In this document: positions 6,033 to 62,862 of the stretch, piece after piece
Layout: each line of letters opens with the position of its first letter
How positions within the stretch are numbered: position 1 is the first letter of the stretch
Virus record (IMG/VR): IMGVR_UViG_3300037488_001841
Location: 11,555-75,554 of that record
Source of the DNA: a virus
Reading direction: 5' to 3' (one strand)
Length of the DNA: 64,000 nucleotides
Notes under the pieces: model-generated
What the model saw: only the letters and a program-made list of their open reading frames with translations
What the model was told of the DNA's origin: nothing
Databases searched by the model: none
Translations under genes and position numbers: made by a program

Positions 6033-6899
6033 ATGGCGACAAACAATGTTTTAGATGCGGTTTTGGCTCAGTATGAGAACTCAAAACAAAGTGGTTCTTC
6101 TTCCACTTCAAAAATGTCTCAAGAAGAAAGAATGAAAAAGTATTTCGCGGCAATCCTTAAAGACAGCGAAAAACAAGGACAAAGAAAAATCCGTATTTTA
6201 CCTACAACTGATGGATCATCTCCTTTTAAAGAGGTTTGGTTCCACGAAATCAATGTTGATGGAAAATGGCAGAAGTTCTATGATCCGGGAAAAAATGACA
6301 ACGAACGTTCACCTTTGAATGAGGTTTACGAAGAGTTAATGTCAACAGGTCGTGAATCAGACAAACAATTAGCAACACAATACAAAGCTCGTAAGTTTTA
6401 TATTGTTAAAGTGGTTGACCGAGATCACGAAGAAGACGGTGTTAAATTTTGGAGATTTAAACACAACTACAAACAAGAAGGAATCCTTGATAAAATTATT
6501 CCAATTTGGAAAGCAAAGGGAGATGTTACCGATTCAGATAATGGACGTGATTTAATCCTTGAACTTACAAAGGCAAAGACACCAAAAGGTGCAACATATA
6601 CAGTTATTCAAACTGTAATGTATGACGATCCAACACCAACACATGAAGACGCTGAACAAGCATCTACATGGATCAACGATGAGTTGACATGGGAAGACGT
6701 TTATTCTAAAAAACCTGTTGAATATCTTGAAGCAATTGCAAGAGGTGAAACTCCAAGATGGGATACAGATGCGGGTAAATACATCTACTCTAATAGTGAA
6801 CAATCAGAAGTTTCAATGGGAGGATCAACTCCAAAATCAATTAATGAGGTTGCAGATCCTCAGGTAAATGATGTTGAGGACGAAGATTTACCGTTCTAA
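6033..6899 (+). CDS. Single-stranded DNA-binding protein (T4 gp32-like)
   Basis: IRILP..PF.EVWFH, YIVKVVDR, G.DL.LE.TK; acidic C-terminal tail EDEDLPF; heads the replication block. Confidence 0.8.
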   Translation: MATNNVLDAVLAQYENSKQSGSSSTSKMSQEERMKKYFAAILKDSEKQGQRKIRILPTTDGSSPFKEVWFHEINVDGKWQKFYDPGKNDNERSPLNEVYEELMSTGRESDKQLATQYKARKFYIVKVVDRDHEEDGVKFWRFKHNYKQEGILDKIIPIWKAKGDVTDSDNGRDLILELTKAKTPKGATYTVIQTVMYDDPTPTHEDAEQASTWINDELTWEDVYSKKPVEYLEAIARGETPRWDTDAGKYIYSNSEQSEVSMGGSTPKSINEVADPQVNDVEDEDLPF

Positions 6900-6914
6900 T
6901 TAAATTAATAACTT

Positions 6915-6955
6915 ATACTAGGACACTCTGTCTATGTTAGTGTCCTAGTATTTTT
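6915..6955 (+). terminator. Stem-loop terminator/attenuator after SSB
   Basis: 13-bp perfect stem atactaggacact/agtgtcctagtat followed by Ts. Confidence 0.7.
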
Positions 6956-11127: not shown

Positions 11128-12075
11128 ATGGAAAAAATATTAGTTGAAAATCCTAATAGGTTTGTCATCTTCCCAATTGAACACAATGATATTTGGGAAT
11201 ATTACAAAATGCATCAAGCTGCTTTTTGGACGGCTGAGGAGGTTGATTTAACGAATGATATTCGTGACTGGGAAAAATTGACGGATAATGAAAAATTCTT
11301 TGTGAAGAACGTATTATCGTTTTTTGCGGCTTCTGATGGAATTGTTAATGAGAATTTGGCGGAAAACTTTTACCGAGAGGTTCAGTATCCTGAAGCGAAA
11401 TTCTTTTATGGGTTCCAATTAGCGATGGAGAATATTCACTCGTTAATGTACTCATTATTGATTGATACTTACATTAGTGACCCAAAAGAGAAAGATGAGT
11501 GTTTTAATGCGATTGAGAACTTACCGGCAGTTAAGAAGAAAGCGACTTGGGCATTAAATTGGATAGATAATTCATCATTCCAAGAAAGATTAGTGGCGTT
11601 TGCGGCAGTTGAAGGGATCTTCTTTTCAGGGTCATTTTGTTCTATCTTTTGGATGAAATCAAGAGGGATCATGCAAGGATTATGTAACGCTAATTCACTA
11701 ATATTTAAAGATGAAAATTTACATTGTGATTTTGCCATCCATTTATTGAATAATCATTGTGATGAAAAACCGTCTGAAAAAAGAATTAAAGAAATTTTGT
11801 TATCCGCTTTGGAGATTGAAAAAGAATTCATTACTGAATCATTACCTGTTTCATTAATTGGAATGAATTCAAACCTAATGAAACAATACTTAGAGTTTGT
11901 TGTTGATGGATTACTTCTTAAGTTTGGATGTAGTAAAGAATTTAATGTTGAACAACCATTTAAGTTCATGGAACAAATTGCGGTTGAAACAAAAGGTAAT
12001 TTCTTTGAATCCAGAACAATGGAATATCAAAAGGCGAAATTAAATGAAACAATTACATTTGAAGAAGATTTTTAA
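11128..12075 (+). CDS. nrdB: Ribonucleotide reductase class Ia beta subunit
   Basis: [30 protein letters not shown] (radical Tyr), [21 protein letters not shown]. Confidence 0.97.
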
Positions 12076-30300: not shown

Positions 30301-30356
30301 CCCAAAATTTTGAAATAAATGTGGGTATAAACTTTGATATACTATGTAATCCGTGA
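27339..30356 (+). CDS. Baseplate wedge protein with P2 gpI / T4 gp7-like domain
   Basis: IPSQLLKNLAQTLGW...FRNLILNSAFLFKSKGTRKSIEILLRMVG follows the tail protein I pattern (L..LA..G..KGT..+..+L). Confidence 0.7.
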   Translation: MAVNNYKCPPQPASGQGTFSDNLVGLQLVDGGGLTQANFEFTTNITEKQNRTFSIGSFSDPISLDSLNINSIEESKKLIADNFRVYPNFDLSQVTNFTMFGSLTKRMSTSVTNIINFFPAALDVQSTQPNFVTSITVQNASYDSVEDETYFEIPISVIRNPFGIDYTVNATRNLELREIPVSYLRNFTTQYLKYSLFFNDVEYPVSDFIPAQPTDTVLKIYVNGNPFLGVPSVSDNFIIRPKQLYVNKVFNENLDQVENFLLNRNIVPIYSAYFQVPKENEDGTYSYSQEVAIFPLVGTWNLDIVSPRFTNYLTKLNNISEYIDLYKTNLITRFLTADAIKEFDTADRKMEKVLQIYGRSFDETRKFITALANMNSVNYNIKNDIPSQLLKNLAQTLGWNINISPITNDQLLSSVFSDGSNAFTGLPQGQTPEELNYQYFRNLILNSAFLFKSKGTRKSIEILLRMVGAPEALTEFNEHVYVADQKINLRQFGIQYAQISGGTYSQELPVLDTNDLFSIMGVQYTGFTTTTITQDVSLTINDYPIDSFGYPSMPVPTDTYFFQIGGGWFESTPQHRMPAQADLTNSVFTGANPNYQTKLLPFNYGQEYLERYRSFPYMDLGFNLRKTVDNKKSWTDNEKYLRKNFDGNFNAYYGVSDDRLVINVKNVDLFMNPAQGLVYDVWTMSRRYNYPIPEEGLFYVDPTYCNPYPNIEYPNRGGIDWTVIVPKPKQKTFFEFAQTFWKNMINVRNRQFMTDGKTSGYPTLSSIYWKYLESEQAINVRNDNFNYQTMIDYVDGMGDYWIRLVEQMIPATTIWNTGVKYENSIFHRQKFVWRRQRGCEIIPVPCKPCKLITQIFSYDCPVQETVVGLYPWDTNPSITSFGALLGSSLTTYGNANNVNINNDCLLNTLESDWYIDIRIDGTPILIYEFFNGVGYSNPALSAPTANDWLNGLYDALVGLLDYGLDYIIDTTNQTITIYNNNCLPINKTQNFEINVGINFDILCNP

Positions 30357-33300
30357 GTTGTGGACAAATACTATATAACCTTTATATAACCGGCGATTGT
30401 ACTAATACAAACGTTGGGGAAATTTACGTTGAAATAACGGGAGGTACGTCTCCGTATACTGTTTATGAGGTTACATCAACAGGATTATTACCAACATCGG
30501 CGGCAACAACCACATATTATTATAGTGGTCTTTCTGCTGATACCTATGTTTTGGCGATACAAGATTCTTGTATTTCTGGAGTGACTACCGAATATCTTAA
30601 TATACCGATATCTTCGGGAACTTCAATAAGTGTTGAATCCTCAACAAATACAATATGTGGTGTTGATAATGGTGAAATTACTTTTGGGTTTACTCCTTTT
30701 TATGGTTATGGTGAAGGTCTATTATACGAAACAACAAATGGTTATATAACCAGTGGATCAACAGGAACCAGCGGGTTAACATTTTCAAATTTATCAGGGG
30801 GTACTTATTATATTATTGGTGATAATGGAGCTGGTTGTACAGGATCAAGTGCTAGTGTTATTATTTTAACCTCAACAACATTAGATTATGGTTTTTATGT
30901 TGTTGATGATGCTAGTTGTAATGTGGCAAGTGGGTCAGGTAAAATATTTGTGACAGGTCAAACAGGTATTGGACCATATACTTACATTTGGAGTAATGGT
31001 CAAACAGGGTCTACCGCAACAGGGTTAACAATAGGGTTTTACGACGTAACCGTAACCGATTCAACGGGATGTTCTGCAACTAGTGGGACATCGGTTAATA
31101 ATGTACCACCAATTGGAATTGCATCATTTACCACAACGGGAAGTACTTGTTTTAATAGTGATGGGGCGGTTGAAGTAACGGTAACTGGTGGTACGGCTCC
31201 GTTTTTTTTCTCAGGATCCAACGGGGATACAATAATAACGTTTGGTAATTCATACACGTTTGAAAATTTACCTTCAGGTACATTAACGGTAACAGTTAAA
31301 GATGCTGGTTTGTGTAGTGATACCCAATCGGTATCGTTAATAACTCCTAATGGATTTGCGGTATCTTCAATATCTTCAACTAATTCAATTTGTGGAAGTA
31401 ATGGGTCAATTAATATTTTAGTTAATACGGGGTCTCCAACGGGAACATTTACGTATACTATATTGGATTCTTCGGGAAATACTGTTAACACAATTACGGT
31501 AGGTACTAATGCGACATTTAATAATTTACCTTCAGATACATATACAATATTAATTGATAATAATTCGGGTTGTGTTTATACAGGATCAACAACTATTACA
31601 AATGTTAATTTATTTACAATAACTGCGGTAACAACTAATACAACTTGTGGGTTAAATAATGGGTCTATTCAGATCTTAACTACCACGGGAGGAACTTTAC
31701 CTTATAGTTATCAAATAACTGGATATGCGGTTTCACCTATTAATAGTTATAATAACTTACCTTCAGGATTTTATACGGTTACTGTTACTGATGCAAATGG
31801 GTGTTCTCAGGTGACTACAACATATGTTGGGACATCAAGTTCGGTATTCTGTAATTTATATACAATACAACCGGTTAATGGTAATGATGGTGAAATAACC
31901 GCATTTGTTAGTAGTGGTACTCCTCCTTTTACGTATAATTGGAGTCCAAATGTTAATTCCCAAACTGGTGATACTGTTACAAATTTAAGTGCGGGAACAT
32001 ATACATTACAAGTTGTGGATGATCTTGGATGTGTCACAACTAAAAGTGTTATCTTACAGGGGACTATTCTTTTAGGTGATTATCAAGTTTATAATATTAG
32101 CGATACTAATTTTGTTGATAGTGGAGTTGATGGTAGAAGGGGAATAGGTCAAATGTATAATGAAGGATTTTTTGATCTAACTGATAATGATACAAATTGT
32201 ATTGTTAATAGTGGTCAATTTATAATAGAAACAATTGTTAATGGTGAGGTTAAACAAAATTTATTTTATACCTCAACAGGAATATACGATTACCCTACAG
32301 ATACTGAATGGACTAATATTGTTAAAAGTACTTTGTTAAGTTATCCTGATATTGGTGAGGTTGATATTGATATTACTAAAAATAAAATGACAATTGTTAA
32401 TGATTGTAAAGATATTAACAAAAGTTGTGTTCAAACAAAATTTAACACATTAGCAGATGCTAAAGTGATAGTTAATTTAATAATTAATTATGATATTTCT
32501 TGTGTTCAATGTGATCTACCGGTAATTACTCCTACCCCGACGCCAACTAACACTGTGACACCAACAAACACACCAACTAACACTGTGACACCAACAAACA
32601 CACCAACAAATACATTAACACCAACAAACACATTAACACCAGGGTTATCACCAACAAGTACTCCGACAATGACAATGACTAACACGGTTACATCAACTCC
32701 GACTATAACACCTACGAATACAAATACCGCAACTCCGACTATAACACCTACAAATACAATTACGCCAACAAATACAACAACGCCAACAAATACCAAAACT
32801 CCAACCTCAACCGCAAGTAATACTCCAACGCCAACAAATACAATTACGCCAACAAATACAATTACGACAACAAATACTGAAACGCCAACACAAACACCAA
32901 CTAATACCATAACACCTACAAACACCGAAACACCAACACAAACACCAACAAATACAAATACACCAACAAATACGGAAACTCCAACCAATACGCCAACGAC
33001 AACAAACACCGAGACGCCTACAAATACACCAACAAATACAATGACATCTACCCCAGCTGCGACCCCAAATAATAGTCCAACTGCTACTTCAATCCCAACA
33101 ACAACTCCAACCCCAACAAACACTGAAACACCTACAAATACGCCAACAAATACCATAACTCCAACTAACACTGAAACGCCAACAACAACTCCAACACCTA
33201 CAAATACGCCAACAAATACTATAACACCAACTAACACTGAAACGCCAACACAAACACCAACACCTACTGTAACTCCAACTAACACTATAACTCCAACAAA

Positions 33301-33958
33301 CACCATAACACCAACAAACACTGAAACACCTACAAATACGCCAACAAATACTCCAACTCCAACAAGAACTCCTACACCAACAACAGATTATATTTTTGCA
33401 AATGCGGATCCTTGTTGTGGAGGACCAACACAAGTGATGTATTTACCAAGTGTTTACCAAAACCTTTCAATCTTATATATTGTGGGAGCAACAAATGGAC
33501 AATGTTATACGATTGGTGGACCAACAACTGGCCCGGCAAATATAACTTGGGATGGTAATCTACCATATGGTGAAGATGATTGTAACGCTTGTCCATACTT
33601 ATGTCTTACACCAACACCAACAAATACCATAACTCCAACAAACACTGAAACACCTACAAATACGCCAACAAATACCATAACTCCAACTAACACTGAAACA
33701 CCAACTAATACACCAACACCAACTCAAACTCCACCAACTCCTGTGAGTTGTAAACAAGGATCTATCCCTGAATTTACACCATATAGTTTCTATGATTGTT
33801 GTGGTATTCTACAAACAGGAACCACTAACGGAACAACGGCATTTGATTGCTATGATTCAAATCAACCATACTCAGGTATCTCAGGTGGAAGTGATTGTGC
33901 GTCACCACCTTCATGTACCGTAACACCTACACCAACGAATACTCCAACCCCAAAATAA
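30353..33958 (+). CDS. Tail-fibre/adhesin-like protein: tandem SprB-like repeats + long Thr-Pro mucin-like region + Cys-rich modules
   Basis: Repeated C...G.I.V..TGGT.PY.Y.W.....NL..GTY.V.V.D..GC units; about 285 aa of TPTNT(I/E) repeats. Confidence 0.75.
32528..33385 (+). repeat. Coding tandem repeat encoding (TPTNT[I/E/V]) / (TP)n; shorter blocks at ~33608-33740 and ~33915-33955
   Basis: Degenerate 12/18-nt units such as acaccaacaaat / ccaacaaacactgaa. Confidence 0.95.
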
Positions 33959-34057
33959 TAAGAGAATTGGGTAACACTATATAACAAGAACTAAACCATA
34001 CTTAATTCCAAAGTGGATAAAATACACTTTTAAAAAATAATAAGTATCTTTTAAGTT

Positions 34058-35038
34058 ATGAAAGATATAATTTTTGTTACGGCACAACCTGATGTTCCTT
34101 ATTTTCATTGGCAGGTTAAATTATATACACATAATTTCATTGAGATGGGTATTGAACCATGTCAAATTCACGTCATTTTTGGATTAACAAATGGTCAAAA
34201 AGAACCTTCTAAAGGTGCTTTAGAATTATGTGATTATGGTTTTAATGTTCATTTTTATTATGATGATAGAATTGGTAAAAATTACATACCAAGTATAAAA
34301 CCATATTTAATATCAAGATGGTTATATGAACATCCACAATATGGTAAAGTATTTTTCTTACACGATGCTGATATAATTTTTAGGGAATTACCTGATTTTG
34401 ATAAATTAATGTCTGATAACGTTTGTTATTTATCTGATACAATTGGTTATATTGGATACAATTACATTATGGATTGTTGTAAAAGATATGAGAATGTTCA
34501 CCCAAAATCAGAAAAAGGTCAATTGTTAAGTGAAATGGCTGGTATTGTTGGATTAGATGTTGATACAATTAAAAATAATCAAGAAAGTTCGGGAGGTGGT
34601 CAATATCTCTTAAAAAATATGACATACGATCTTTGGGAAAAAATATACTTAGATTGTGTTCCTCTTTATAAACAAATGCATGATTACCATAAAAGACATC
34701 CAATAAGTCCTGGTGAAATACAATTTTGGACTGCGGAAATGTGGTCTTTATTGTGGAATTTATGGTTACATAATTATGAGACCAAAGTGGTTGATGATTT
34801 AAATTTTTCTTGGGCTACAGATGATATTAAAATATATGAAGAAAGACCAATATTACACATGGCTGGTGTTACAGATAATTTAAGAGGAACTAAATTTTAT
34901 AAGGGGGAATATATAAATGTTGATCCAATAGAAAAGTTGAAAGAGAACCCATTACATTTTGATTACATTGAAAAGAATAGTACGACAATAAAATATATTG
35001 AAGTAATGAAATCATTTATTCAAAAAACAATAAATTGA
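34058..35038 (+). CDS. GT-A fold glycosyltransferase resembling plant peptidyl-serine galactosyltransferase / hydroxyproline arabinosyltransferase (GT96/GT95)
   Basis: Colinear motifs YFHWQ, YIPSIKPYLISRWL, HDADIIFR (DxD), SGGG, WTAEMW, KVVDDL, ILHMAG. Confidence 0.7.
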   Translation: MKDIIFVTAQPDVPYFHWQVKLYTHNFIEMGIEPCQIHVIFGLTNGQKEPSKGALELCDYGFNVHFYYDDRIGKNYIPSIKPYLISRWLYEHPQYGKVFFLHDADIIFRELPDFDKLMSDNVCYLSDTIGYIGYNYIMDCCKRYENVHPKSEKGQLLSEMAGIVGLDVDTIKNNQESSGGGQYLLKNMTYDLWEKIYLDCVPLYKQMHDYHKRHPISPGEIQFWTAEMWSLLWNLWLHNYETKVVDDLNFSWATDDIKIYEERPILHMAGVTDNLRGTKFYKGEYINVDPIEKLKENPLHFDYIEKNSTTIKYIEVMKSFIQKTIN

Positions 35039-35039
35039 T

Positions 35040-35046
35040 TATTTAT
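35040..35046 (+). promoter_or_regulatory. TATTTAT motif, putative late promoter
   Basis: Immediately after the GT stop, 20 nt before ATG 35067. Confidence 0.55.
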
Positions 35047-35066
35047 ATATTAAACAAATAACTTAA

Positions 35067-37127
35067 ATGGCGATAATATATAAGGTAGAAAATATAAACC
35101 CGGTTATATACAATAACTTCACATTTGTTGATGGTAATGGGGTTAGTAAATCAATGGATTTATTACCAAATGTATCATATTACATCAATGGTAATAGTGT
35201 CATTTCGCCCGCGTTATTTATTACGGTACTTAATTTAGGTAAAGAAACTATTAGATACTGTTTCCAAAGTTGTTGTAATAATGACATTATTGATTTTGAT
35301 GGGAGTAATCAATTCCCATTTAGTACTTACCAAGTTGGCGATACCATATATTTTGATCAAGCAATCACATCTTCAAATCCTAATAACTATAAAACAGGTT
35401 GTTATGAGTTAATAAGTTTCGGACCCACTAATACACACTCATGTTCAATAGCCGGATCTGAAAATGTTAGTGTTGTTTCTTTTGAAAGTAACCCATATGA
35501 TAGTTGTAATAACTGTATTGTTGATCACAGTTGTTGTGTGAGTTATATAGTTACAAACCAATCATCAACGAATGTTAAAACATCAATTGAATTTACTCCT
35601 TGTTGTGATGAAACTAAAACATCTCCATATTTCATACCATTCCAAACAGGTATATTAGTATGTAGTTCAACAGGTATAAAAGTTTTGGGTGGTGACGTTC
35701 AAGTTATAAATAATGGGAATTGTCCTGATTGTCCTGTTATCACAACAACAACAACGGGACCTGTAGTAACAACCACAACAACATTTGCTCCTCCAATACC
35801 ACCAATTGAGCCTCTTAATGAATGTTCTGTAATAACTATTTTCCCTCTTGGGGTTGAATGTTTTACAGTTGACCCAACAACAAGTGGATCTTTCGATGGT
35901 GCGGTCACTTTAGGTATAACGGGAGGGACACCACCATATGAGGTTGTTTGGGAAAATGGATCATTATCTCAATCGTTAAGTAATATTGGAGTTGGGGAAT
36001 ACAATTCAATTGTTACAGATTATTATGGTGATTTTACTGCATATACCACTTGTGTATTAACCGCTGAAACACCGGTTACAACAACTACAACAACTCAAGA
36101 ACCATTACCATCTTATGAAGATATATGTATAACAATTATTAGAGGTAACAAACTATTTTCTTACGCTGAATATTACCAATTTGATTTTAATAATTATATC
36201 GGAGATTATCCTACTTGGACTAATACAATAGATGGGTTAGATATTGTGTGGGGCGAAACTAACAATCAATGGGAGGTTTCTGGATGGACTATAGGTCAAA
36301 TTATTAATACTAATCCGGCAATACCACCACTAAATGGGTGGGATTCTTTAGGGCCTACATTACCTGATAGAGTATTATCAATAACTGCGGTTTCAGGACT
36401 ATGTCAATTATTAAGTATGCCTAACTTAACGATACGTGTTAATCAACCTGAGTGTGGTTGTGACGGAAGTTTAATCTTAACTCCTTTTGGAGGTACTCCA
36501 CCTTACACTTTTTCTATTGATGGTGGTACGACTTATGCTGCAACAACAATATATAATGATTTATGTCAAGGAACTTATATTGTTTATGTGAAAGATTCTT
36601 CAGGATTTACATATAGTGAAACTGTTACTTTATCGGCACCTACATCATCGGTTAATTATATTTTAACTATGGCATATTTGGGTGGTAATACATTTGGTGT
36701 TAGTATATCTCCTTCATTATCTATTGGGACCACAGTTACTTTTGATGTTATACATACTAACACATTTATTGTTGGACCTTTACAGTCAAGTGCAACTTAT
36801 AATAATACGGTTACATTAAACGTTAATGGGGTTCCGGTTTCTTATACTCCACCACCTGTACTAACCCAACTTTCACCGGTACCTCAACAATTCCCTTGTC
36901 AAGGATCTTTCCAATACACAACAACAAAACAGTTTACGTGGGTTGGTTTAAGTATGACGTTTGGTACAATAATAAATGGTTCGTTTACTAATACAATATC
37001 GCCTGTTTTACCAACACCACAATGTTTTGTTGCAACTACATCATATTATATTTATATAAATAATGTAAGAATAAATAATGATTGTGATACGATAAGAGTT
37101 GTTAACCCTAAACCACCAAAAATTTAA
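35067..37127 (+). CDS. Cys-rich virion protein with SprB-like repeats and poly-Thr linkers
   Basis: DGAVTLGITGGTPPYEVVW, DGSLILTPFGGTPPYTFSIDGG; three TTTTT tracts. Confidence 0.7.
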   Translation: MAIIYKVENINPVIYNNFTFVDGNGVSKSMDLLPNVSYYINGNSVISPALFITVLNLGKETIRYCFQSCCNNDIIDFDGSNQFPFSTYQVGDTIYFDQAITSSNPNNYKTGCYELISFGPTNTHSCSIAGSENVSVVSFESNPYDSCNNCIVDHSCCVSYIVTNQSSTNVKTSIEFTPCCDETKTSPYFIPFQTGILVCSSTGIKVLGGDVQVINNGNCPDCPVITTTTTGPVVTTTTTFAPPIPPIEPLNECSVITIFPLGVECFTVDPTTSGSFDGAVTLGITGGTPPYEVVWENGSLSQSLSNIGVGEYNSIVTDYYGDFTAYTTCVLTAETPVTTTTTTQEPLPSYEDICITIIRGNKLFSYAEYYQFDFNNYIGDYPTWTNTIDGLDIVWGETNNQWEVSGWTIGQIINTNPAIPPLNGWDSLGPTLPDRVLSITAVSGLCQLLSMPNLTIRVNQPECGCDGSLILTPFGGTPPYTFSIDGGTTYAATTIYNDLCQGTYIVYVKDSSGFTYSETVTLSAPTSSVNYILTMAYLGGNTFGVSISPSLSIGTTVTFDVIHTNTFIVGPLQSSATYNNTVTLNVNGVPVSYTPPPVLTQLSPVPQQFPCQGSFQYTTTKQFTWVGLSMTFGTIINGSFTNTISPVLPTPQCFVATTSYYIYINNVRINNDCDTIRVVNPKPPKI

Positions 37128-37135
37128 TAATTAAC

Positions 37136-37142
37136 TATTTAT
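37136..37142 (+). promoter_or_regulatory. TATTTAT motif, putative late promoter
   Basis: 7 nt before ATG 37150, in a 22-nt gap. Confidence 0.55.
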
Positions 37143-37149
37143 ATACAAA

Positions 37150-39684
37150 ATGGCATATATAATAAAAAATACATCAGGACTTGTTAATACTAGAATGACA
37201 GATACAGGTAGATTGAAGATGTCTCAGGGCAATTTCAATATATCATATTTCCAAATTGGTGATAGTGAAGTTTCTTACGATAAAGTTTCTAGTACTTATA
37301 ATCAAGCAAATAGTTTTGTATTAATACCACCATTTGGTAGTCAAAATAGTGATGGGATACCAAAATCAAACAAACAAAATGTTAAATATCCATATTATGT
37401 TGACGGTAATGCAGGAAACACATATGGTATTCCATATATGGATTCTACGGTTGAAAATGTTTTTAACAGAGCGCCATTGAGGGGGTTTTTTACCGGTAAT
37501 ACCACGGCAAGTACAATAACATGGAGTGCATTAACAAGTAGTAATTATGTTAAAACATCTAACTATTTGGTTGATCCTTTTTCGTTAAACGGGACTAATG
37601 AAATAACATTAATTTATTCTGGTTGTAATACCTCATCATTTGGTTCATTTGATGTGGGTGATTTTATTACAATTTATTTTGATGGGTTAGGTTGTCATAA
37701 TTGTACTTGTACTAATTTACCAACTCCAACACCTACGGCATCACAAGGATCAACCCCGACACCTACTCCAACACCTTCGGCAACTAGTGGAACTATTAAT
37801 TGTGCTAGTCCAACTCCAACCCCAACACCTTCAAAAACACAATGTTTAACCCCAACACCAAGTAGACAATGTCCGGCACCGCCAGATCCTGTTTGTTTAA
37901 TGGATATGTATAGTTGTTATCCAATATTAACATATAGAATTATTGCGATTTGTGATAATAAAATAACTTTAGATAGAACTACTCCAAACTTTGGGTTAAT
38001 TAGTAATGAATGTTGTTTTAGGGCTTTAGTGTATCCTAAAACTATGACAGAATTATATGATAGTATAACACCAAGTCCACATTGGGATAATGATGTTATT
38101 AACTATGAAACAATATGTGATGTTGATCAGTTTGATGTTAAAATTTGGAATATGAATATTCCTTGGACTGAAAGTCCTGCGGGTCTAAGATCAACTCAAT
38201 TTGAGGACTATACTTATTTTGGATCAGTTAATTATATAGGAAGTAAGGAGTATTTTGGTTATAATTCAAATTCAGGACAAACTTTCTATGTTAATTCAAC
38301 TTTAAGTGCTGAAACTACTGACACATATTACTACAACTCATTTGATGAGGTGGTAAAAGTTGAACCTGAAGAACAAAAAGCGATTGCGATAATACATTAT
38401 ACAAATCAAACGATTGACTTCTTCTATGGTGAGAAATTTGCGTTAGAACCGTATGATCCATCTAACCCTGACGATACAACAGGGCAAGCAAGAAACTTTA
38501 AATTACATATTCCTTGGATTATGTGGCATAAAAATCCTGAATGTTGTTTTGGAGATACATTTTGGGTAGACCCTCCGGGATTTGATGGTAAGGGATTATT
38601 TGAGGTTCATTTTATGGAATCTAATCTTAATAATGACATGAATAATCCTGGTTTAAGATATTACCATTTATGGGACACACACCCTAATTCTAATGGATTA
38701 CCAAGTAGAATAGGTAAAGTTTTCCCTGATAGTCAAACTATTATTATTGATGATGAAGAAATTGTTGCGGCAATGTCATATAAGGCAAATCGAAATTGGA
38801 CATTACCGGCACCTCAAGTATCATTAATAACTCCAAACATATGTGATACAACCTCATCTACAATTAATGGTATATTAACAGGTAATAATGAAACTATGTA
38901 TATTACATATCGTTTAACTAACGAATATGGATTTACTAATTCATTACATTCAAATTATTATATAAAAATTACAGGTAATAATAATGATTGTTTCCCTGAT
39001 ACGTCTAAGAACGTTGCAATAAGATTCGGGGGAGAGTTTGGTTGTTTGGTGGTACCTGGTTATAACCCAACGACTACAACAACAACTTATAGTCCAATTA
39101 CTACTACTACAACAACATATATTCCTGTAACAACTACAACAACAATATGTCCTACCTGTGACATACCAAATGGATTTTACGCCACAAAATTTGAGGTTTT
39201 AGCTCAGAAGGTACCAACAGGAACCAGACCTAACCCATCTAATTGGAGATTAATTGATTTTACAAATAGTATAAGTGCGGATACAATTAATGGTTATATA
39301 ACTGAGGATGCTTTAACAGGTACTACATTTATAGTGACGGAAACATTATATAATTCGGCACCATATTATAATCTAAATGATTATATTGATTTAACACCAC
39401 TTGGTAATACAAGTCCGAAGTTAAATTTTGGGGATGAGTATTATTTTTATGGTGGAATTGAAACAGATATTCAGGCAACAATATATGAAATGATGTATAA
39501 AGTTAACTTAAATTATACAGAATTCCAAAATACTTCAAACCCAACATGGACTCCTGGCACAAAATCTTACATTACCGAAATTGCATTATTGGACGACAAG
39601 AAAGATGTTTTGGTGGTTTCAAAACTACAATCACCGGTGTTAAGACAAGGGATACAACAGTTTTTAGTTAAGTTTGATTTATAG
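37150..39684 (+). CDS. Tail-fibre/baseplate attachment protein with TP and poly-Thr inserts
   Basis: N-terminal MTDTGRLKMSQG..I.YFQIGD and C-terminal ITEIALLDDKKDVLVVSKL resemble the two halves of the P2 gpH-type fibre-attachment domain. Confidence 0.6.
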   Translation: MAYIIKNTSGLVNTRMTDTGRLKMSQGNFNISYFQIGDSEVSYDKVSSTYNQANSFVLIPPFGSQNSDGIPKSNKQNVKYPYYVDGNAGNTYGIPYMDSTVENVFNRAPLRGFFTGNTTASTITWSALTSSNYVKTSNYLVDPFSLNGTNEITLIYSGCNTSSFGSFDVGDFITIYFDGLGCHNCTCTNLPTPTPTASQGSTPTPTPTPSATSGTINCASPTPTPTPSKTQCLTPTPSRQCPAPPDPVCLMDMYSCYPILTYRIIAICDNKITLDRTTPNFGLISNECCFRALVYPKTMTELYDSITPSPHWDNDVINYETICDVDQFDVKIWNMNIPWTESPAGLRSTQFEDYTYFGSVNYIGSKEYFGYNSNSGQTFYVNSTLSAETTDTYYYNSFDEVVKVEPEEQKAIAIIHYTNQTIDFFYGEKFALEPYDPSNPDDTTGQARNFKLHIPWIMWHKNPECCFGDTFWVDPPGFDGKGLFEVHFMESNLNNDMNNPGLRYYHLWDTHPNSNGLPSRIGKVFPDSQTIIIDDEEIVAAMSYKANRNWTLPAPQVSLITPNICDTTSSTINGILTGNNETMYITYRLTNEYGFTNSLHSNYYIKITGNNNDCFPDTSKNVAIRFGGEFGCLVVPGYNPTTTTTTYSPITTTTTTYIPVTTTTTICPTCDIPNGFYATKFEVLAQKVPTGTRPNPSNWRLIDFTNSISADTINGYITEDALTGTTFIVTETLYNSAPYYNLNDYIDLTPLGNTSPKLNFGDEYYFYGGIETDIQATIYEMMYKVNLNYTEFQNTSNPTWTPGTKSYITEIALLDDKKDVLVVSKLQSPVLRQGIQQFLVKFDL

Positions 39685-39738
39685 CAAAAACTTTAGTTTT
39701 ACATTCGTCCAATTATATTATAATAAAATAATCATTAT

Positions 39739-40347
39739 ATGAGAACACCAATTAAAAACTCACCTAAAGTTTTAGGATTAGATATTTCCACTAAAACCAT
39801 AGGTTGGGCTCTTTTTGACATAAAAACTCAAGAACTATTAGAATTAACTCACGTATCCCCACGACCAAAATCAAAAGATACTGAAGAAAATAAAATGTTA
39901 GAATTAATACTTAAATCTGAAATTTTTAAGACAAAATTAGAGGACTATAAAAAATTAGGTATTGTTAGTGTTATTATTGAAGAACCACTACTTAATTCAA
40001 ATAATGTTTATACCATTCAAACCTTATTAAGATTTAACACATTAATATGTAAAACGATTTATGATATTATTGGGATCGTCCCCGAATTCATATCCACATA
40101 TAATTCAAGAAAGTTTGCGTTCCCTGAATTGGTTAAAGAAAATGATAAGAAGAAACACGTACTATTTGGGGGGTTACCAAAAGACATTGATAAGAAAATG
40201 GTTATATGGGAACTTGTTGCAAAAAGAGAACCACAGATCCAATGGCAGTATACTAAAAATCAAACACTTAAGAAAGAAAACTTTGATCAAACCGATGCTT
40301 ATACCTGTGTATTAGGTTATATGAGAAGTAAAGGAATTTGGGCTTAA
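39739..40347 (+). CDS. ruvC: RuvC-like Holliday junction resolvase
   Basis: VLGLDISTKTIGWA, IIEEP, DQTDA: RNase H-fold acidic residues. Confidence 0.8.
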   Translation: MRTPIKNSPKVLGLDISTKTIGWALFDIKTQELLELTHVSPRPKSKDTEENKMLELILKSEIFKTKLEDYKKLGIVSVIIEEPLLNSNNVYTIQTLLRFNTLICKTIYDIIGIVPEFISTYNSRKFAFPELVKENDKKKHVLFGGLPKDIDKKMVIWELVAKREPQIQWQYTKNQTLKKENFDQTDAYTCVLGYMRSKGIWA

Positions 40348-40372
40348 TATCGTTTAATATACCGATAATTTG

Positions 40373-40403
40373 AAATATCGTCTTTATGGACGATATTTTT
40401 TTT
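40373..40403. terminator. Terminator between convergent genes
   Basis: aaatatcgtct-ttat-ggacgatattt followed by a T run. Confidence 0.75.
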
Positions 40404-41989
40404 TATGGACAAAGTATAACATCAATTATTGTACCTGTTGAATCTACTTGTACTGCATAAACTACAACTGCTGGTGCTAATACAGATGATATTGCAATCC
40501 ATTGATTATTTTGACCTGTTATTGGTAAATTTGATAAAGCATCAATTAATGGAATTCCGACAACAGGTAATGAAGTAGATGTAATCCATCCATTACTTGC
40601 AAATGATACATAATTACTACAAGCCAATATATCCGTAGACCACCAATTTGCTCCACTAGTCCAATTATAACTTGTAATTTGGTTTGTGGATGATGGTGTT
40701 GGTGTGTGTGTTGGAGTAGGTGTTGGACTTGGGAAACAAGGGACTCCCGTTTCACTAACATCTATTGATCCAAGTAACGAATATGGTGTTGATAATGAAT
40801 TAACAATTATACTCTGATATGCGTTTAATGTTTGAATTGTTGATAACCCTGATAAATCAGTGAAAACATATGTTTGATTGTTAATAGGGCTATTATTAGT
40901 TAATAAATATTGAACACAAAGAGTATTGTTACAACATACTCCCACATTGGTTATTATTGCGGTTCCTATTGAGATTGTTGGCACTGTGGTAGAACAAATG
41001 TGAATTACACGATCTCCCCAAGATTGTGCACCTACAGATGATGGTCTTAAATCAACCAATCTATTATCCGAACAATCATTAAATGTTATAACTGTGTTTT
41101 GAGCGGTACCATCAAAATTCGATATAGTGTAAGCATTACATGAACACGGTTTTGTTGGTGTTGGGGTCATTGTTGGGGTCATTGTTGGAGTAGAAGTAAT
41201 AGGAATACAATTTAAGCAACTACCATCACTTGACGGACCATATTCTGTGGTTATAACAACCTTATCCCCACCACTTATATTATCAACTATTGTTTGGAAT
41301 ATAAAACAAGATGATTTACCATTTATTGTTCCACCATAAACATCTCCAATAACTAATAAGTTTCCAATGGAGTCAAATAGAGTTTGTGTTGTGTAGTACT
41401 CAATACCGGTAAAACAATCCTCAAATTTCTTACTTGTTGCACAAACAATAAATCCATCAACGTTATTAAATTTTGCCACCCCATCATAATTACATGGTCT
41501 ATCAATTGGTGATGAAGGGGTTGGAGTATTAGTAGGTGTTGGAGTTGGGGTTGGTGAGTATGTATTTGCCGTTACGTTTAATGAAACACCACCACATACA
41601 TTGGTTGGGGTTGGTGTCATAGTTGGAGTTGGTGTTATAGTTGAGGTAGGGGTAGGTGTTGGTGTCGGTGGAACATCACAATCAAACTCTGCGTTAAAAT
41701 CAATATCACAAGGTACTGGTGGTGGTGGAGTTGGTGGACAAGGCCCATTAGATAAAATTGATGTGTAGAAATCGGGACAACTACTTGATGTTGGGGTTGG
41801 ACCAAATAAGAGACAAGGGTCTCCTAAATTAGCCGCTAAACACCATCTATTTTCTGTTATTGAATAAAAAACGTAGTAACCATTTGTTGCTCCAGTATAA
41901 TAATCTAAACTATAGTATTGGCCATCAATGGTATATGTGTCATCATATATTCCCGCATTACTTATACAAATATCTGTACTACAACTCAT
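40403..41989 (-). CDS. Cys-rich virion-like protein with four Thr-Pro tracts
   Basis: PTPTPTPT linkers between Cys-bracketed beta modules. Confidence 0.7.
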   Translation of the reverse strand: MSCSTDICISNAGIYDDTYTIDGQYYSLDYYTGATNGYYVFYSITENRWCLAANLGDPCLLFGPTPTSSSCPDFYTSILSNGPCPPTPPPPVPCDIDFNAEFDCDVPPTPTPTPTSTITPTPTMTPTPTNVCGGVSLNVTANTYSPTPTPTPTNTPTPSSPIDRPCNYDGVAKFNNVDGFIVCATSKKFEDCFTGIEYYTTQTLFDSIGNLLVIGDVYGGTINGKSSCFIFQTIVDNISGGDKVVITTEYGPSSDGSCLNCIPITSTPTMTPTMTPTPTKPCSCNAYTISNFDGTAQNTVITFNDCSDNRLVDLRPSSVGAQSWGDRVIHICSTTVPTISIGTAIITNVGVCCNNTLCVQYLLTNNSPINNQTYVFTDLSGLSTIQTLNAYQSIIVNSLSTPYSLLGSIDVSETGVPCFPSPTPTPTHTPTPSSTNQITSYNWTSGANWWSTDILACSNYVSFASNGWITSTSLPVVGIPLIDALSNLPITGQNNQWIAISSVLAPAVVVYAVQVDSTGTIIDVILCP

Positions 41990-51490: not shown

Positions 51491-52291
51491 ATGAAGGACA
51501 AAAACTTAGGAATACCTATTAACCAAGACGAAGTTTACCACTACCTTAAAGATATCAGAAAAATTAAAGTAATGACTCCCGACAGAGAACGTGAGTTAGC
51601 CGTTAAAATGAAATCAAATGAGATTTCAGACAAAGAGAGAAAACAAATTGAGGAAGAACTTCTTATAGGTAACTTAAGATTTGTCATTACTGTGGCGAAG
51701 CAGTATCAAAACCAAGGTTTAGATTTACAAGATCTAATTGCTGAGGGTAATTATGGTTTGATGAAAGCAATCAAAAACTTTGATTGGGGGAAGGACCTTA
51801 GATTTATATCTTATGCGGTGTGGTGGGTTAAACAATCAATCATTCAATCGTTAAATGATAACGCAAGAACAATACGATTACCGGTGAATGTTGTTCAAGA
51901 TCTTCATAGAGCAAAGAAAGAGTTGGAACAGACAGGTAAGAAGTTGGAAGACAAATTTTCCACATTACCATCAATCATTGATTTGGACATGAGAATTAAT
52001 GATGAGGGAGATACTCTTATTGATATGATTGCGAATCAAGATGCTGAGGCTCCTGATGCTTCTTTTCATACAAAAGATATTCTAAAAGAAAAAATGATGA
52101 CCTTGTTGGATGTTTTAGATGATCGTGAGAAGTCAATCATTGGGGATTACTTTGGGTTAACAGGAACTCCAAGAACTTTAGAGGACATTGGTAGTGATTT
52201 TGGCCTCACAAAAGAAAGAGTACGTCAGATTAAAGAAAAGGCGTTAAGACGATTAAGAAACGATAGTTCGGAACTATTTGATTATTTGTAA
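51491..52291 (+). CDS. Phage-encoded RpoD-family sigma-70 factor, Bacteroidota type
   Basis: YLKDI (region 1.2), NLRFVITVAKQYQNQG..DLIAEGNYGL, FISYAVWWVKQSI, RTIRLP, TLEDIG..GLTKERVRQIKEKALRRLR. Confidence 0.93.
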   Translation: MKDKNLGIPINQDEVYHYLKDIRKIKVMTPDRERELAVKMKSNEISDKERKQIEEELLIGNLRFVITVAKQYQNQGLDLQDLIAEGNYGLMKAIKNFDWGKDLRFISYAVWWVKQSIIQSLNDNARTIRLPVNVVQDLHRAKKELEQTGKKLEDKFSTLPSIIDLDMRINDEGDTLIDMIANQDAEAPDASFHTKDILKEKMMTLLDVLDDREKSIIGDYFGLTGTPRTLEDIGSDFGLTKERVRQIKEKALRRLRNDSSELFDYL

Positions 52292-52426: not shown

Positions 52427-52874
52427 ATACCCATATAACTGTTTGCCAACCGGCAACTCTAAATGGATTTTCTTTTGATTCTCTAAAAACGGTAATTACA
52501 TTTAATATCCATTTTAAGTCATTTTTTTGAACAGGTTGAATTGCAATTGCAATCTCCCATTTTAATGATTTAACAACAAATCTTTCATTTGCGACTATCT
52601 TGTGGGAAACTATTTTTTCCGCAATTTTATTTCTTGCTTTCAGTAATACTTCGTTTATTTCCCAATTAGTTATTTCTCTTTGATTATAATCGTAACTATA
52701 TTTGCCGGTCAATTCCTCACCTTTACCTTCTAAATCGGGTCTGGTTCTTCTTTTCCAAGAGTGAGGCTCTCTAAATATCTCTAAATAAAAATCGGAATTT
52801 AAATTAACAGACATATTACCGATTGTTTTCTCAATAAGTAAATGTTTTAATATTGTGTTCCTAAGTGATGACAT
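52425..52874 (-). CDS. Hypothetical protein
   Basis: ORF track; TATTTAT at 52881-52887 (minus). Confidence 0.7.
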   Translation of the reverse strand: MSSLRNTILKHLLIEKTIGNMSVNLNSDFYLEIFREPHSWKRRTRPDLEGKGEELTGKYSYDYNQREITNWEINEVLLKARNKIAEKIVSHKIVANERFVVKSLKWEIAIAIQPVQKNDLKWILNVITVFRESKENPFRVAGWQTVIWV

Positions 52875-52880
52875 ATGATT

Positions 52881-52906
52881 ATAAATATATTATTATTGAT
52901 ATTTAT
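52881..52906. promoter_or_regulatory. Back-to-back divergent TATTTAT motifs
   Basis: Minus copy 52881-52887 serves 52874; plus copy 52900-52906 serves 52925. Confidence 0.6.
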
Positions 52907-52924
52907 AAACACATAACAATTATT

Positions 52925-53998
52925 ATGAAAGAAAAATTTTTACCTTGGTTTTTATTATTCTGTGCTCTTGGTCTGTCGGGTACGGCAGCATATTACAGTG
53001 TGGTTGGACTATCAATAGTGTTTGTGGGAGTTGCTATACCTGTTATTATTATGGGTGGGTTTTTGGAAGTTTCCAAGATAGCAATAGCAACTTATTTACA
53101 CGATAAATGGAAAGAAACTTACGGAGCATTGAAGATTTATTTAACAATGGCATTAATTATTTTGTCAGTCATTACATCAATAGGGATATACGGTTTATTA
53201 AGTACTGGATTCCAATCAAACATTGCTAAATTAGAGATCAATGATAAACAGATTAAAAACATTGAAGTTAAAAAAGACAGGTTTGAGGAGATCAAATTAG
53301 AGTATACTAAAGAAAAAACAATATTGGATAAGGACATCTCAAAGTTGAGAGATGGGTTATCAAGTAATACAACAACTCAAACTGTGGATAGACAAACAGG
53401 TCAAATTGTAACAAGGGCAAATAATGCAAATAGACAATCATTTGAGAAACAGTTAAAATCTGCTCAAGACAACCGAGATATTGTGTCGGGTAAAATTGAT
53501 GCAATGAACGACAGCATAACTAGATTAGACATTAAAATATTGGACATGGAATCTCAAGAGATTGAGGGTAATGAACTTGGAGCGATTAAATATGTGAGTG
53601 AGTTAAGTGGTTGGGGTCTCAATGAAGTTGCGAATTTATTTATTCTTATTTTGATCTTTGTGTTTGATCCATTGGCAATCACATTAGTTATTGCAACCAA
53701 TCAGGCGTTTAAGGCAAATAAAAAACGCAAAGAGGATGATGTAACTATTGAAGAGAAAATAGTAGAAGTTGAGAAAATAGTTGAAGTACCTGTTGAAGTA
53801 ATTAAAGAGGTTGAGAAGATTGTTGAGGTTCCTGTTGAGGTATTTGTGGAGAAGGGAAAGGTAGTTCCTAATGTTGAGGAATTATTTGAATCTAACGATT
53901 TGTATATAGACATAATGTTAGATGATGAAATTACAACTACAACAACGACCCAAGAAGGTCCTAAAGTTTTAAGATACACTAAAAATAATGTTGGATGA
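52925..53998 (+). CDS. Membrane protein: 3 N-terminal TM helices, coiled coil, TM, EKIVEVPVE repeats
   Basis: ATG 52925; hydrophobic segments, ELGAIKYV...LILIFVFDPLAI. Confidence 0.75.
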   Translation: MKEKFLPWFLLFCALGLSGTAAYYSVVGLSIVFVGVAIPVIIMGGFLEVSKIAIATYLHDKWKETYGALKIYLTMALIILSVITSIGIYGLLSTGFQSNIAKLEINDKQIKNIEVKKDRFEEIKLEYTKEKTILDKDISKLRDGLSSNTTTQTVDRQTGQIVTRANNANRQSFEKQLKSAQDNRDIVSGKIDAMNDSITRLDIKILDMESQEIEGNELGAIKYVSELSGWGLNEVANLFILILIFVFDPLAITLVIATNQAFKANKKRKEDDVTIEEKIVEVEKIVEVPVEVIKEVEKIVEVPVEVFVEKGKVVPNVEELFESNDLYIDIMLDDEITTTTTTQEGPKVLRYTKNNVG

Positions 53999-60851: not shown

Positions 60852-61781
60852 ATGGAAGATTATTATAGTGTCTTGGGGGTTAATGAAAGTGCAACCCAAG
60901 AGGAGATTAAAAGAGAATATAGAAAGTTAGTAAAAGAGAACCACCCTGATAAAGGTGGGGATGAAGAGAAGTTCAAAAAAATCTCAACGGCATATGATAC
61001 GATAGGTGATGAAACTAAACGTAGGCAATATGATCAACAAAAAAACAATCCATTTGGTAACATGGGTGGATTTGGTGGGGCATCTATGGAAGATATGATG
61101 AACAGTATGTTTGGTGGTAATCGTAGACAACAAACTAGAGTTCACGATACTGTTGTTGATGTTCATATTGGTGTATTAGAATCTTATAGAGGTGGAAAGA
61201 AAACAATAACATATAATAGAAAGGATAAATGTAACCCTTGTAATGGAACAGGTGGTGAAAAGAAAGTATGTCACACTTGTGGAGGACAAGGATATACAGT
61301 TAAACAAATGGGTTCAGGTATGTTTATCCAAATTGTACAGGTTGCTTGTGGAACTTGTAACGGTGTTGGAAAAATAACAACTGCCGCTTGTTATGCGTGT
61401 GGTGGTCAAGGGGCTAAAAACGCAATAAATACAATAGAAGTACAATTACCACATGGTATTGATGACGGGCAATTTTTAAGATTACAAGGACTTGGTGATT
61501 ATAGAAATGGGGGTTACGGTAATTTGGTGGTAAGAATAAGATCAATCAACGAAGGTAATTTTGAAAAGGATGGACCTAATTTAATTTATAATGCGTTTTT
61601 AAGTATTGAGGATTTCCAAAAAGGGTCTTTTGAGGTACCTCATCCAGATGGATCAATGAGTATTAAATTTCCTAATAATATTGATACCTCAATGCCGTTA
61701 AGAGTTAAGGGCAAAGGTTTCAAATATCAACCACAAGGTGATTTGTTAATTAATCAATATTTGAAATACAATAGAGGTTAG
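60852..61781 (+). CDS. dnaJ: DnaJ (Hsp40) co-chaperone, type I
   Basis: DYY.VLGV, HPD, G/F region, four CxxCxGxG repeats, C-terminal domain. Confidence 0.95.
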   Translation: MEDYYSVLGVNESATQEEIKREYRKLVKENHPDKGGDEEKFKKISTAYDTIGDETKRRQYDQQKNNPFGNMGGFGGASMEDMMNSMFGGNRRQQTRVHDTVVDVHIGVLESYRGGKKTITYNRKDKCNPCNGTGGEKKVCHTCGGQGYTVKQMGSGMFIQIVQVACGTCNGVGKITTAACYACGGQGAKNAINTIEVQLPHGIDDGQFLRLQGLGDYRNGGYGNLVVRIRSINEGNFEKDGPNLIYNAFLSIEDFQKGSFEVPHPDGSMSIKFPNNIDTSMPLRVKGKGFKYQPQGDLLINQYLKYNRG

Positions 61782-61977: not shown

Positions 61978-62008
61978 TTGACATATAAACATAAAATAAC
62001 TATTTTTG
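61978..62008 (+). promoter_or_regulatory. Sigma70/Bacteroidota-type promoter
   Basis: TTGACA-N17-TATTTTTG. Confidence 0.7.
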
Positions 62009-62022
62009 TAATAAAAAAAATT

Positions 62023-62862
62023 ATGCTATCATATATTGGAGGTAAAAGTAAAATTGGAAAGTGGATTGTCCCTTTCTATGATAAAAATATGGAAACATAT
62101 CTTGAAACATTTGGGGGTATGTTTTGGTGTTTTTATAACATGGATTTGAAACAATTCCCCAATTTAAATAAAGTTGTGTATAACGACTTTAACCCACTCA
62201 ACCACAATTTATTTAAGTGTGTTCAAAACCCAACTGAATTATTAAGATCAATCAACTCAATTGACTGTCAAAAATTTGGTAATGAGGTAACACCTGAAAT
62301 GTATCGTGAACAATTTGTTTCTTTCCAAAGCGAGTTATTTAATGACGGATTCAAAATTGATGGAATTGATTATGATGCGGCGGCAAAATATGTTTACGTG
62401 TTAACTCAGGTTTTTAGTGGGTCAAAACCAGAAACGTCAAAATTTATTGACTTAAAAGGAAAATATAAGTCAAAATACCTTACCTTTAGAGACAAGTTAA
62501 TGAAACCTGATTGGGTAGATCATTTCTTAAAGATTACAGATGTTGAAAACATGGATTTTGCGGACGTAATCAATAAGTACGACTCACCATCAACATACAT
62601 TTATTTGGACCCACCATATTGGAAGACGGAGAACTATTATTCAAACCACGACTTTGATCGTGACGATCATGAGCGTTTAGCAAATGTGTTAGATGAGGTT
62701 AAAGGTAAGTTTTCATTATCTTATTATGACTTTGATTTACTTAGTGAATGGTTCCCTGAGGATAAATATACTTGGGTTAGAAAAGAGTTTGCAAAGGCGG
62801 CGTCGGCTAAGAAAGGTGAGAAACAAAATATGGGTGAGGAGTTACTTATAATGAATTATTAA
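62023..62862 (+). CDS. dam: Dam/D12-class N6-adenine DNA methyltransferase
   Basis: YIGGKS, YLETFGG, YNDFN, YLDPPY, LSY, ELLIMNY; start ATG 62023. Confidence 0.88.
   Translation: MLSYIGGKSKIGKWIVPFYDKNMETYLETFGGMFWCFYNMDLKQFPNLNKVVYNDFNPLNHNLFKCVQNPTELLRSINSIDCQKFGNEVTPEMYREQFVSFQSELFNDGFKIDGIDYDAAAKYVYVLTQVFSGSKPETSKFIDLKGKYKSKYLTFRDKLMKPDWVDHFLKITDVENMDFADVINKYDSPSTYIYLDPPYWKTENYYSNHDFDRDDHERLANVLDEVKGKFSLSYYDFDLLSEWFPEDKYTWVRKEFAKAASAKKGEKQNMGEELLIMNY

Follow-up and report, generated by a model that had tools for sequence, protein, structure and literature searches.

A gene in a stretch of viral DNA probably encodes a cytoplasmic enzyme that O-glycosylates Thr-rich tracts in virion proteins of the phage itself. 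The stretch (hereafter the window) comprises 64,000 nucleotides (nt), positions 11,555 to 75,554, of IMG/VR virus record IMGVR_UViG_3300037488_001841, and the gene (ORF 34058; open reading frames, ORFs, are named by their lower coordinate in the window, see Table 1) encodes a protein of 326 amino acids (aa) predicted to have the GT-A glycosyltransferase (GT) fold. A first-pass annotation of the window had proposed such self-glycosylation; comparative evidence from related and unrelated phages supports it, and the TPTNT-type repeat encoded by the preceding gene is one of the predicted acceptors.

We scored poly-Thr C-terminal tails in three IMG/VR families of capsid or tail-tube proteins that are unrelated to one another, and found that the tails come and go with the enzyme gene. 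Among phiFL1-type tail tubes, the tail is found in 12/12 proteins when the enzyme gene is present and in 0/15 when it is absent; the corresponding counts are 14/14 and 0/58 for bIL285-type tail tubes, and 36/37 and 0/1 for R3.3-type capsids (62/63 with the gene and 0/74 without it over the three families). The single exception, of the R3.3 type, has an apparently frameshifted tail together with a truncated enzyme gene. In the phiFL1-type family, tailed and tailless states are interleaved among relatives at 82–88% and ~66% identity, so at least two to three coupled gain/loss events are needed to explain them. The capsid protein of IMG/VR 3300044857_000298 is 94% identical to the R3.3 type and has neither the tail nor the enzyme gene; in place of the tail, it ends in an Ig-like domain (TITATSGSFTATVAVTVTE), which suggests that the glycosylated tail and the Ig-like decoration domain are interchangeable surface features. 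Four whole genomes that have homologous tail-tube proteins and no enzyme gene contain no Thr run of five or more anywhere.

The same pairing is seen in cultured phages of other lineages, although the enzymes of the small Firmicutes phages share only 33–36% identity with that of the window. Tractable carriers include phages of Enterococcus (VPE25, phiFL1), Lactococcus (bIL285, 1706), Lacticaseibacillus (PLE3), Staphylococcus and Clostridium. In phiFL1A and phiCTP1 the gene lies directly 3' of a tail-tube gene whose product ends in poly-Thr. The phiFL1A tail-tube protein gp50 ends in T5ST6SST7 and the enzyme gene overlaps the gp50 stop, while gp45 at the capsid position (annotated as conserved hypothetical) ends in T5/T5/T7; in phiCTP1 the tails are on gp18 and gp11. 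VPE25 has T10 at the end of its tail-tube protein, bIL285 has a T9RHD tail, SA2 and TPWB06 have T8-9P tails, and Iacchus has T7..T7. In R3.3, a capsid protein and a tail-tube-sized protein (208 aa) have tails ending in ...SHA, and the enzyme gene follows the tailed capsid protein; in 1706, the capsid protein ends in T9HHD and the major structural protein orf13, encoded directly upstream of the enzyme gene, ends in T10HHD. Runs internal to the protein occur as well: the gene is paired with them in Chryseobacterium phage MA9V-3, where two internal Thr runs measure 21 and 41 residues, and in several phage-like loci from Bacteroidota or Proteobacteria. A separate observation concerns Staphylococcus phage SA2, where a 90-aa ORF (6658-6930), mostly poly-Thr/Ser, overlaps the 3' end of the tail-tube gene (TPWB06 has a similar one); possibly a frameshift adds it to the tail-tube protein, in the manner of SPP1 gp17.1*, and lengthens the acceptor tract considerably.

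In a set of 80 loci from bacterial genomes, stand-alone enzymes (290–365 aa) have T-rich genes nearby in about 31 of 43 cases (a hand count, short contigs included). The T-rich genes of this set peak at position -1 (30/75) and at -6/-5 relative to the enzyme gene, as expected, since prophage capsid and tail genes occupy those positions. The first-pass expectation that homologues would co-occur with Thr/Pro-rich (T/P-rich) genes is thus matched by the stand-alone enzymes, which travel with poly-Thr or T/P-rich virion proteins; two clades of fused bacterial homologues are the exception.

For the window's own lineage, an enzyme-based scan of IMG/VR confirmed at least 595 loci, and we examined the closest 80. 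Across these, the enzymes are 57–87% identical to that of the window and the synteny is fixed. T-rich ORFs occupy positions +1 and +2 in 75% of the loci, none lies more than six genes away, and a T-rich minus-strand ORF is kept at +4/+5. Orthologues of ORF 37150 adjoin the enzyme gene in 62 of the 80 loci, nearly all with runs of T5 to T11. In an alignment of 12 of these orthologues, both linkers of ORF 37150 are either of TPTPTP/TPTNT type or pure poly-Thr at the same positions, and because of this shared position we read the two types as functionally interchangeable. This would tie the TP and TPTNT tracts of the window to the poly-Thr feature that co-varies with the gene elsewhere. (An AlphaFold2 (AF2) model of ORF 37150 built from the same number of orthologues reached a predicted local distance difference test score, pLDDT, of only 41.) Contig CAYGYN010000024.1 (5.3 kb), which has been binned under 'Candidatus Woesearchaeota archaeon', encodes a poly-Thr protein and, beside it, an enzyme with 67% identity to that of the window; the contig is most likely a mis-binned fragment of the same phage lineage.

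Within the window, T/P-rich segments are confined to four ORFs near the enzyme gene (30353, 35067, 37150 and 40403) among about 58, and the 11.5 kb that precede the window in the record contain no T/P-rich tract. As the first-pass annotation had described, the enzyme gene directly follows the gene with the long T/P/N repeat and precedes genes with poly-Thr and TP tracts (Table 1). At the DNA level, the tracts of ORF 30353 are tandem repeats with a period of 18 and its multiples. Two minus-strand ORFs over this region, 32506-33321 (271 aa) and 33089-33433 (114 aa), were rejected as genes; their V/G-rich and C/W-rich products are mirror artefacts of the TP-repeat DNA. Isolated short Thr runs occur in two other ORFs of the window: ORF 27339 has a T4, and ORF 52865 has a T6 close to its C-terminus. 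The latter (52865-53998, plus strand, 377 aa) has the run 15 residues from its C-terminus (DDEITTTTTTQEGPK) and its gene lies just 5' of one for an amidase; this could be a fifth tagged protein, outside the fibre block.

Table 1. The enzyme gene, its candidate acceptors with their Thr-rich tracts, and other features located in the window
Feature	Position in window (nt)	Strand	Details
ORF 30353, 1201-aa protein with Ig-like repeats, candidate acceptor	30353-33958	+	weak Ig-like Pfam matches; virion structural PHROG 26672
ORF 30353, main TPTNT-type tract	32519-33391		291 aa, residues 723-1013; 142 Thr, 58 Pro, 39 Asn
ORF 30353, two further T/P tracts	33605-33751; 33902-33955
ORF 34058, 326-aa predicted soluble GT-A glycosyltransferase	34058-35038	+	PHROG 4417 (E 3e-69); AF2 model
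ORF 35067, 686-aa protein, candidate acceptor	35067-37127	+	SprB repeats (E 2e-8)
ORF 35067, poly-Thr linkers	35742-35804; 36060-36113		T5..T5; T6
ORF 37150, 844-aa conserved protein, candidate acceptor	37150-39684	+
ORF 37150, TP linker	37720-37845
ORF 37150, poly-Thr linker	39061-39144		T6, T6, T5
ORF 40403, 528-aa protein, candidate acceptor	40403-41989	-
ORF 40403, three TP linkers	41504-41680; 41141-41206; 40670-40738
Sigma-70 family factor	51491-52291
Full-length DnaJ	60852-61781		J, zinc-finger and C-terminal domains
Dam-type N6-adenine methylase	61978-62862

The enzyme belongs to a family annotated in PHROG as of unknown function, and no Pfam family matches it, even with E values of up to 1 allowed. 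The motifs named in the first-pass annotation are found (YFHWQ at residues 15-19, YIPSIKP at 76-82, HDADIIF at 102-108, GG at 179-180 and WTAEMW at 224-229). The DxD is D103/D105, and HDAD (102-105) directly follows the strand formed by residues 98-101. In an alignment of 62 diverse relatives, Y76, Y131, G180, Q222, W224, F250, H267, G270 and K282 are family-invariant in the enzyme, and D103 and D105, like H267, G270 and K282, are invariant or nearly so. An AF2 model built on these relatives has a pLDDT of 97.5 and is of GT-A type, with a single Rossmann-like alpha/beta/alpha domain and the DxD following the fourth strand; more than 300 GT-A chains of the PDB match it at Foldseek E < 1e-3, and viral predicted structures give the same GT-A/GT8-like picture.

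According to Foldseek and VIA-align, the nearest solved structures are retaining GT8-type enzymes (Z 13.5–15, 210–230 residues aligned), namely glycogenin (Z 15.0), Skp1 alpha-galactosyltransferase (14.2), LgtC (14.1), UGGT (14.0) and GlyE (13.5). Several of these (glycogenin, Skp1 alpha-galactosyltransferase, GlyE and UGGT) act on proteins or protein-borne glycans, and T4-type DNA glucosyltransferases are absent among the structural matches. The refuting result named in the first-pass annotation, best structural hits to DNA- or lipopolysaccharide (LPS)-modifying GTs with no GT95/96 relationship, was not obtained. The DxD and the C-terminal His...Lys pattern resemble the metal/uridine diphosphate site of GT8. 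At the sequence level the enzyme falls outside CAZy GT8 (PF01501), with no Pfam match and ~10% identity to GT8 structures, and searches of PDB chains with the enzyme and with its family profile gave nothing significant. There is no membrane segment (the maximum 19-residue hydropathy is 0.83, and the protein begins directly in strand 1); lacking a hydrophobic segment, the enzyme is predicted to be cytoplasmic, where tailed phages assemble.

The family is large: clustering at 90% identity yields 1330 groups in the length range searched, and clustering at 50% yields 825. Fused relatives carry a second GT domain (PF11397, O-FucT, GT6, GT2 or Glyco_transf_7C), a methyltransferase domain or a radical-SAM/SPASM domain; these fusions fit a putative role in building glycans. 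Two fused clades can be told apart, one of 450–830 aa with a GT2/Glyco_transf_7C-like second domain and one of 1000–1380 aa with discoidin and PF11397 GlcNAc-transferase domains. Fused chromosomal homologues are found in Chitinophaga, Pedobacter and Mucilaginibacter, and others in Acidimicrobiia. In a quick tree, the clade of the window falls with the stand-alone enzymes that are associated with poly-Thr, and the fused clades come out as derived, under a midpoint root that leaves the order of events unsettled.

The first-pass annotation had also likened the enzyme to the plant GTs HPAT (GT95) and SERGT1 (GT96). This relation stands at the level of the superfamily, through a bacterial HPAT family. 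The enzyme itself has no match to Pfam HPAT (PF23452) at E up to 1, and KVVDDL, one of the motifs on which the likeness was based, is not conserved in the family. Six-frame HPAT searches of the phage record and of five carrier phage records found nothing. Of all Pfam families, PF23452 ranks first in the 62 relatives, yet only 3 of them match it (best E 1.3e-4); it is present on 10–58% of the members in 19 of the 30 nearest named ESM-Atlas clusters. A PF23452 search of bacterial genomes led to a 321-aa protein above the curated cut-off, and 46 of its 47 aligned relatives match HPAT (best E 1e-16). When the enzyme family was aligned with this 47-member bacterial family by hhalign, the probability was 89.8% (E 1.8e-6, 261 columns), with the PYxxWQ, Tyr76, DxD..F.R, W-x-[AS]-[DE]-M, His267 and YKxxY blocks in register. 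With a single HPAT-positive sequence hhalign gave only 36%, and the family hidden Markov model missed that sequence, so the link emerges only profile against profile. No match was obtained in an HPAT search of ten bacterial homologues, mostly long fused forms (only second GT domains were found), and a search for longer relatives returned fused bacterial forms and no SERGT1-like protein. The plant-type resemblance is thus real but distant, and GT95/96 membership of the enzyme is not established.

HPAT-family relatives (GT95/96) are initiating peptide glycosyltransferases. With the plant and algal enzymes the phage enzyme would share, besides the order of the catalytic blocks, the targeting of hydroxyls on Pro/Ser/Thr-rich repetitive structural proteins (predicted on the phage side). 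It differs from them in that the plant enzymes are type II membrane proteins of the Golgi or endoplasmic reticulum while the phage enzyme has no anchor, and in that the plant acceptor is hydroxyproline or Ser while the predicted phage acceptor is Thr. In the bacterial HPAT family, 10 of the 47 members are fused to PqqD; PqqD-type domains are peptide-binding modules of pathways for ribosomally synthesized and post-translationally modified peptides. These fusions suggest peptide substrates for the superfamily, and the PqqD-fused proteins look like peptide glycosyltransferases.

We propose that the product of ORF 34058 is a soluble, metal-dependent GT-A enzyme with a DxD-plus-His site, presumably active, which would move a sugar from a nucleotide sugar to the hydroxyl of Thr (perhaps Ser) in low-complexity Thr-rich tracts, and would modify structural proteins before or during assembly. 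Thr as the acceptor atom and the sugar are inferred, as is retaining stereochemistry, which the GT8-like fold suggests. The acceptors in the window's phage would be the poly-Thr and TP/TPTNT linkers of the four neighbouring fibre-like or adhesin-like proteins, resulting in glycan-covered, mucin-like linkers at the surface of the particle. Where the family occurs in small Firmicutes phages, it would decorate the poly-Thr tails with which major capsid and tail-tube proteins end. The phage may benefit through shielding, protease resistance, stiffness or adhesion. In broader terms, and with the balance tipping only slightly in its favour, an HPAT-like soluble glycosyltransferase and a poly-Thr/TP tag may form a portable cassette for a widespread O-glycan coating of capsids, tail tubes and fibres in phages of Firmicutes, Bacteroidota and other phyla. 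Such a cassette would be gained and lost as a unit, would have been swapped at least once for an Ig-like decoration domain, and in jumbo phages would turn fibre linkers into mucin-like stalks; to this, too, we give marginally better than even chances.

Several points weigh against O-glycosylation of the window's proteins. The co-variation concerns C-terminal tails of small phages, and its carry-over to the internal TP/TPTNT linkers would rest on their equivalent positions and on synteny; the loci compared for the window's own lineage were collected by their enzyme gene, and no relative lacking it is among them. Fisher's test on the totals gives p ~1e-38, a value that overstates the evidence as the loci are related. 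Fibre and adhesin proteins commonly have T/P linkers for which no modification is known. Two herelleviruses with distant homologues (SAC12B and LP65) have no Thr run within 7 kb. The long fused bacterial homologues of both clades almost never have T-rich neighbours, for which reason their targets are probably different, and one of these clades is the nearest sister of the window's clade in the quick tree.

Among other explanations, it is unlikely, in our judgement, that the enzyme acts on the Thr-tract virion proteins by another chemistry, with the tract as a docking tag only, with transfer of a sugar phosphate or another group, or with extension of a glycan started by the host. The sole match in profile searches of solved chains is GlcNAc-1-phosphotransferase (E 0.63, non-significant; fold Z 9.7), the GT8-like neighbours GlyE, XXYLT1, LARGE1 and Skp1 GalT extend glycans and do not start them, and the fusions with second GT domains suggest multi-step glycans. 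However, the enzyme is the sole GT beside the tagged proteins in most small phages, Pfam shows no other GT in the window, the co-varying feature is a homopolymer of the acceptor residue itself, and the HPAT-family relatives initiate glycosylation on peptides.

Quite unlikely, too, is action on phage DNA or on a host envelope polymer (as in superinfection exclusion or serotype conversion), with the T-rich neighbours being incidental. Some phage GT8-like GT-A enzymes do extend glycans on DNA by adding secondary sugars (bioRxiv 10.1101/2023.12.21.572611), LPS-acting LgtC and WbbM are among the structural neighbours, and the fused clades lack T-rich neighbours. The record is only ~26% complete, so base-modification genes could sit elsewhere. 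Against this explanation, no thymidylate-synthase or hydroxymethylase homologue is found in the part of the genome that the record covers, the gene lies inside late structural operons, often starting a few bases from a tail-tube or capsid stop, many carriers are temperate prophages, in which DNA hypermodification is unlikely, and the enzyme has no membrane segment; the tight coupling with poly-Thr tails in three protein families would be left unexplained.

Least likely of all, and very improbable, is that the tracts of the window are plain flexible linkers kept by replication slippage next to an inactive or irrelevant moron gene, to which the Firmicutes association is not transferable: TP linkers are indeed widespread, tract length and type vary freely among orthologues, and identity to the Firmicutes phage enzymes is low, but the enzyme keeps every family-invariant residue and its fixed synteny across the closest loci, nearly all orthologues retain poly-Thr runs although their sequences turn over, and MA9V-3 and the Bacteroidota and proteobacterial phage-like loci pair the gene with internal Thr runs.

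O-glycosylation of the phage's own virion proteins, the reading we prefer, can be compared with known systems. To our knowledge, virion glycosylation by phage enzymes has been demonstrated only in mycobacteriophages. Virions of mycobacteriophages Che8, Corndog and Myrna are glycosylated (Freeman et al. 2023, Cell Host Microbe 31:1216, as reported in PMC12619734). As far as that report describes them, the GT genes there are phage-encoded and lie in or beside the structural operon, as is the case for the window and the small phages, and the acceptors are C-terminal extensions of capsid and tail-tube proteins modified in the cytoplasm, for which co-variation suggests a counterpart here. The differences are that the enzyme studied here is from a separate, unnamed family (PHROG 4417), that homopolymeric Thr tags or TP linkers are predicted to serve as acceptors, that its carriers infect Firmicutes, Bacteroidota and others where the mycobacteriophages infect Actinobacteria, and that the putative acceptors in the window are internal linkers of fibre-like proteins. 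The enzyme family, the acceptor type, the host range and, for the window, the fibre-linker target are therefore new relative to the mycobacteriophage system. A full-text literature search turned up no account of the enzyme family, and none of poly-Thr tags serving as sites of glycosylation in phages.

The GT8-type enzymes glycogenin, LgtC, Skp1 alpha-galactosyltransferase and GlyE provide the closest solved folds, and glycogenin and GlyE act on proteins; they differ from the phage enzyme in sequence, as given above, and GlyE, of the pneumococcal serine-rich-repeat pathway, extends a glycan that a different enzyme has begun on the Ser-rich repeats of an adhesin that is secreted. A64R, the capsid glycosyltransferase of chlorovirus PBCV-1 (Z 11.0 to the enzyme model), and the capsid GTs of giant viruses are also virus-encoded cytoplasmic GT-A enzymes with which a virus glycosylates its own capsid independently of host machinery; A64R differs in coming from a eukaryotic virus, in its atypical N-linked glycans and in its GT family.

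The source record is a 75.5-kb IMG/VR virus, and its CheckV completeness of ~26% implies a genome of ~290 kb; the G+C content of the window is ~31%. Functions identified include a gp32-like single-stranded DNA-binding protein, a UvsX/RecA-like recombinase, a DnaB helicase and a class I ribonucleotide reductase. DnaJ, a sigma-70 factor and an amidase are encoded as well, along with a nuclease resembling SbcCD and a methylase of Dam type. In the putative tail block (14.6–39.7 kb), Pfam and PHROG searches give family support only for ORF 30353 and ORF 15081, the latter being a baseplate J/wedge protein by its family match. The T4 late-promoter motif TATAAATA shows no enrichment, with 19 occurrences against an expected 16.6, and there is no copy ahead of the enzyme gene on the strand of that gene. 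The SprB repeats, the DnaJ gene and the enzyme's best cultured match, in Chryseobacterium phage MA9V-3, indicate a Bacteroidota host. The host is probably of Flavobacteriia type, and the phage is probably a jumbo phage. It resembles the large aquatic 'moraphages', for which DnaJ/DnaK genes and predicted Flavobacteriia hosts have been reported (PMC12619734).

If the proposed function is true, it would account for a recurrent unannotated gene in structural operons as well as for the odd poly-Thr tails of capsid and tail proteins, and phage self-glycosylation would reach several bacterial phyla and the fibres of jumbo phages. Glycosylation of mycobacteriophage virions alters their recognition by antibodies, and is thus relevant to phage therapy. 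The system would represent a simple tag-and-enzyme form of O-glycosylation in the bacterial cytoplasm, in which a short Thr tag could suffice for any protein, and the plant HPAT/SERGT enzyme family would gain a bacterial and viral context.

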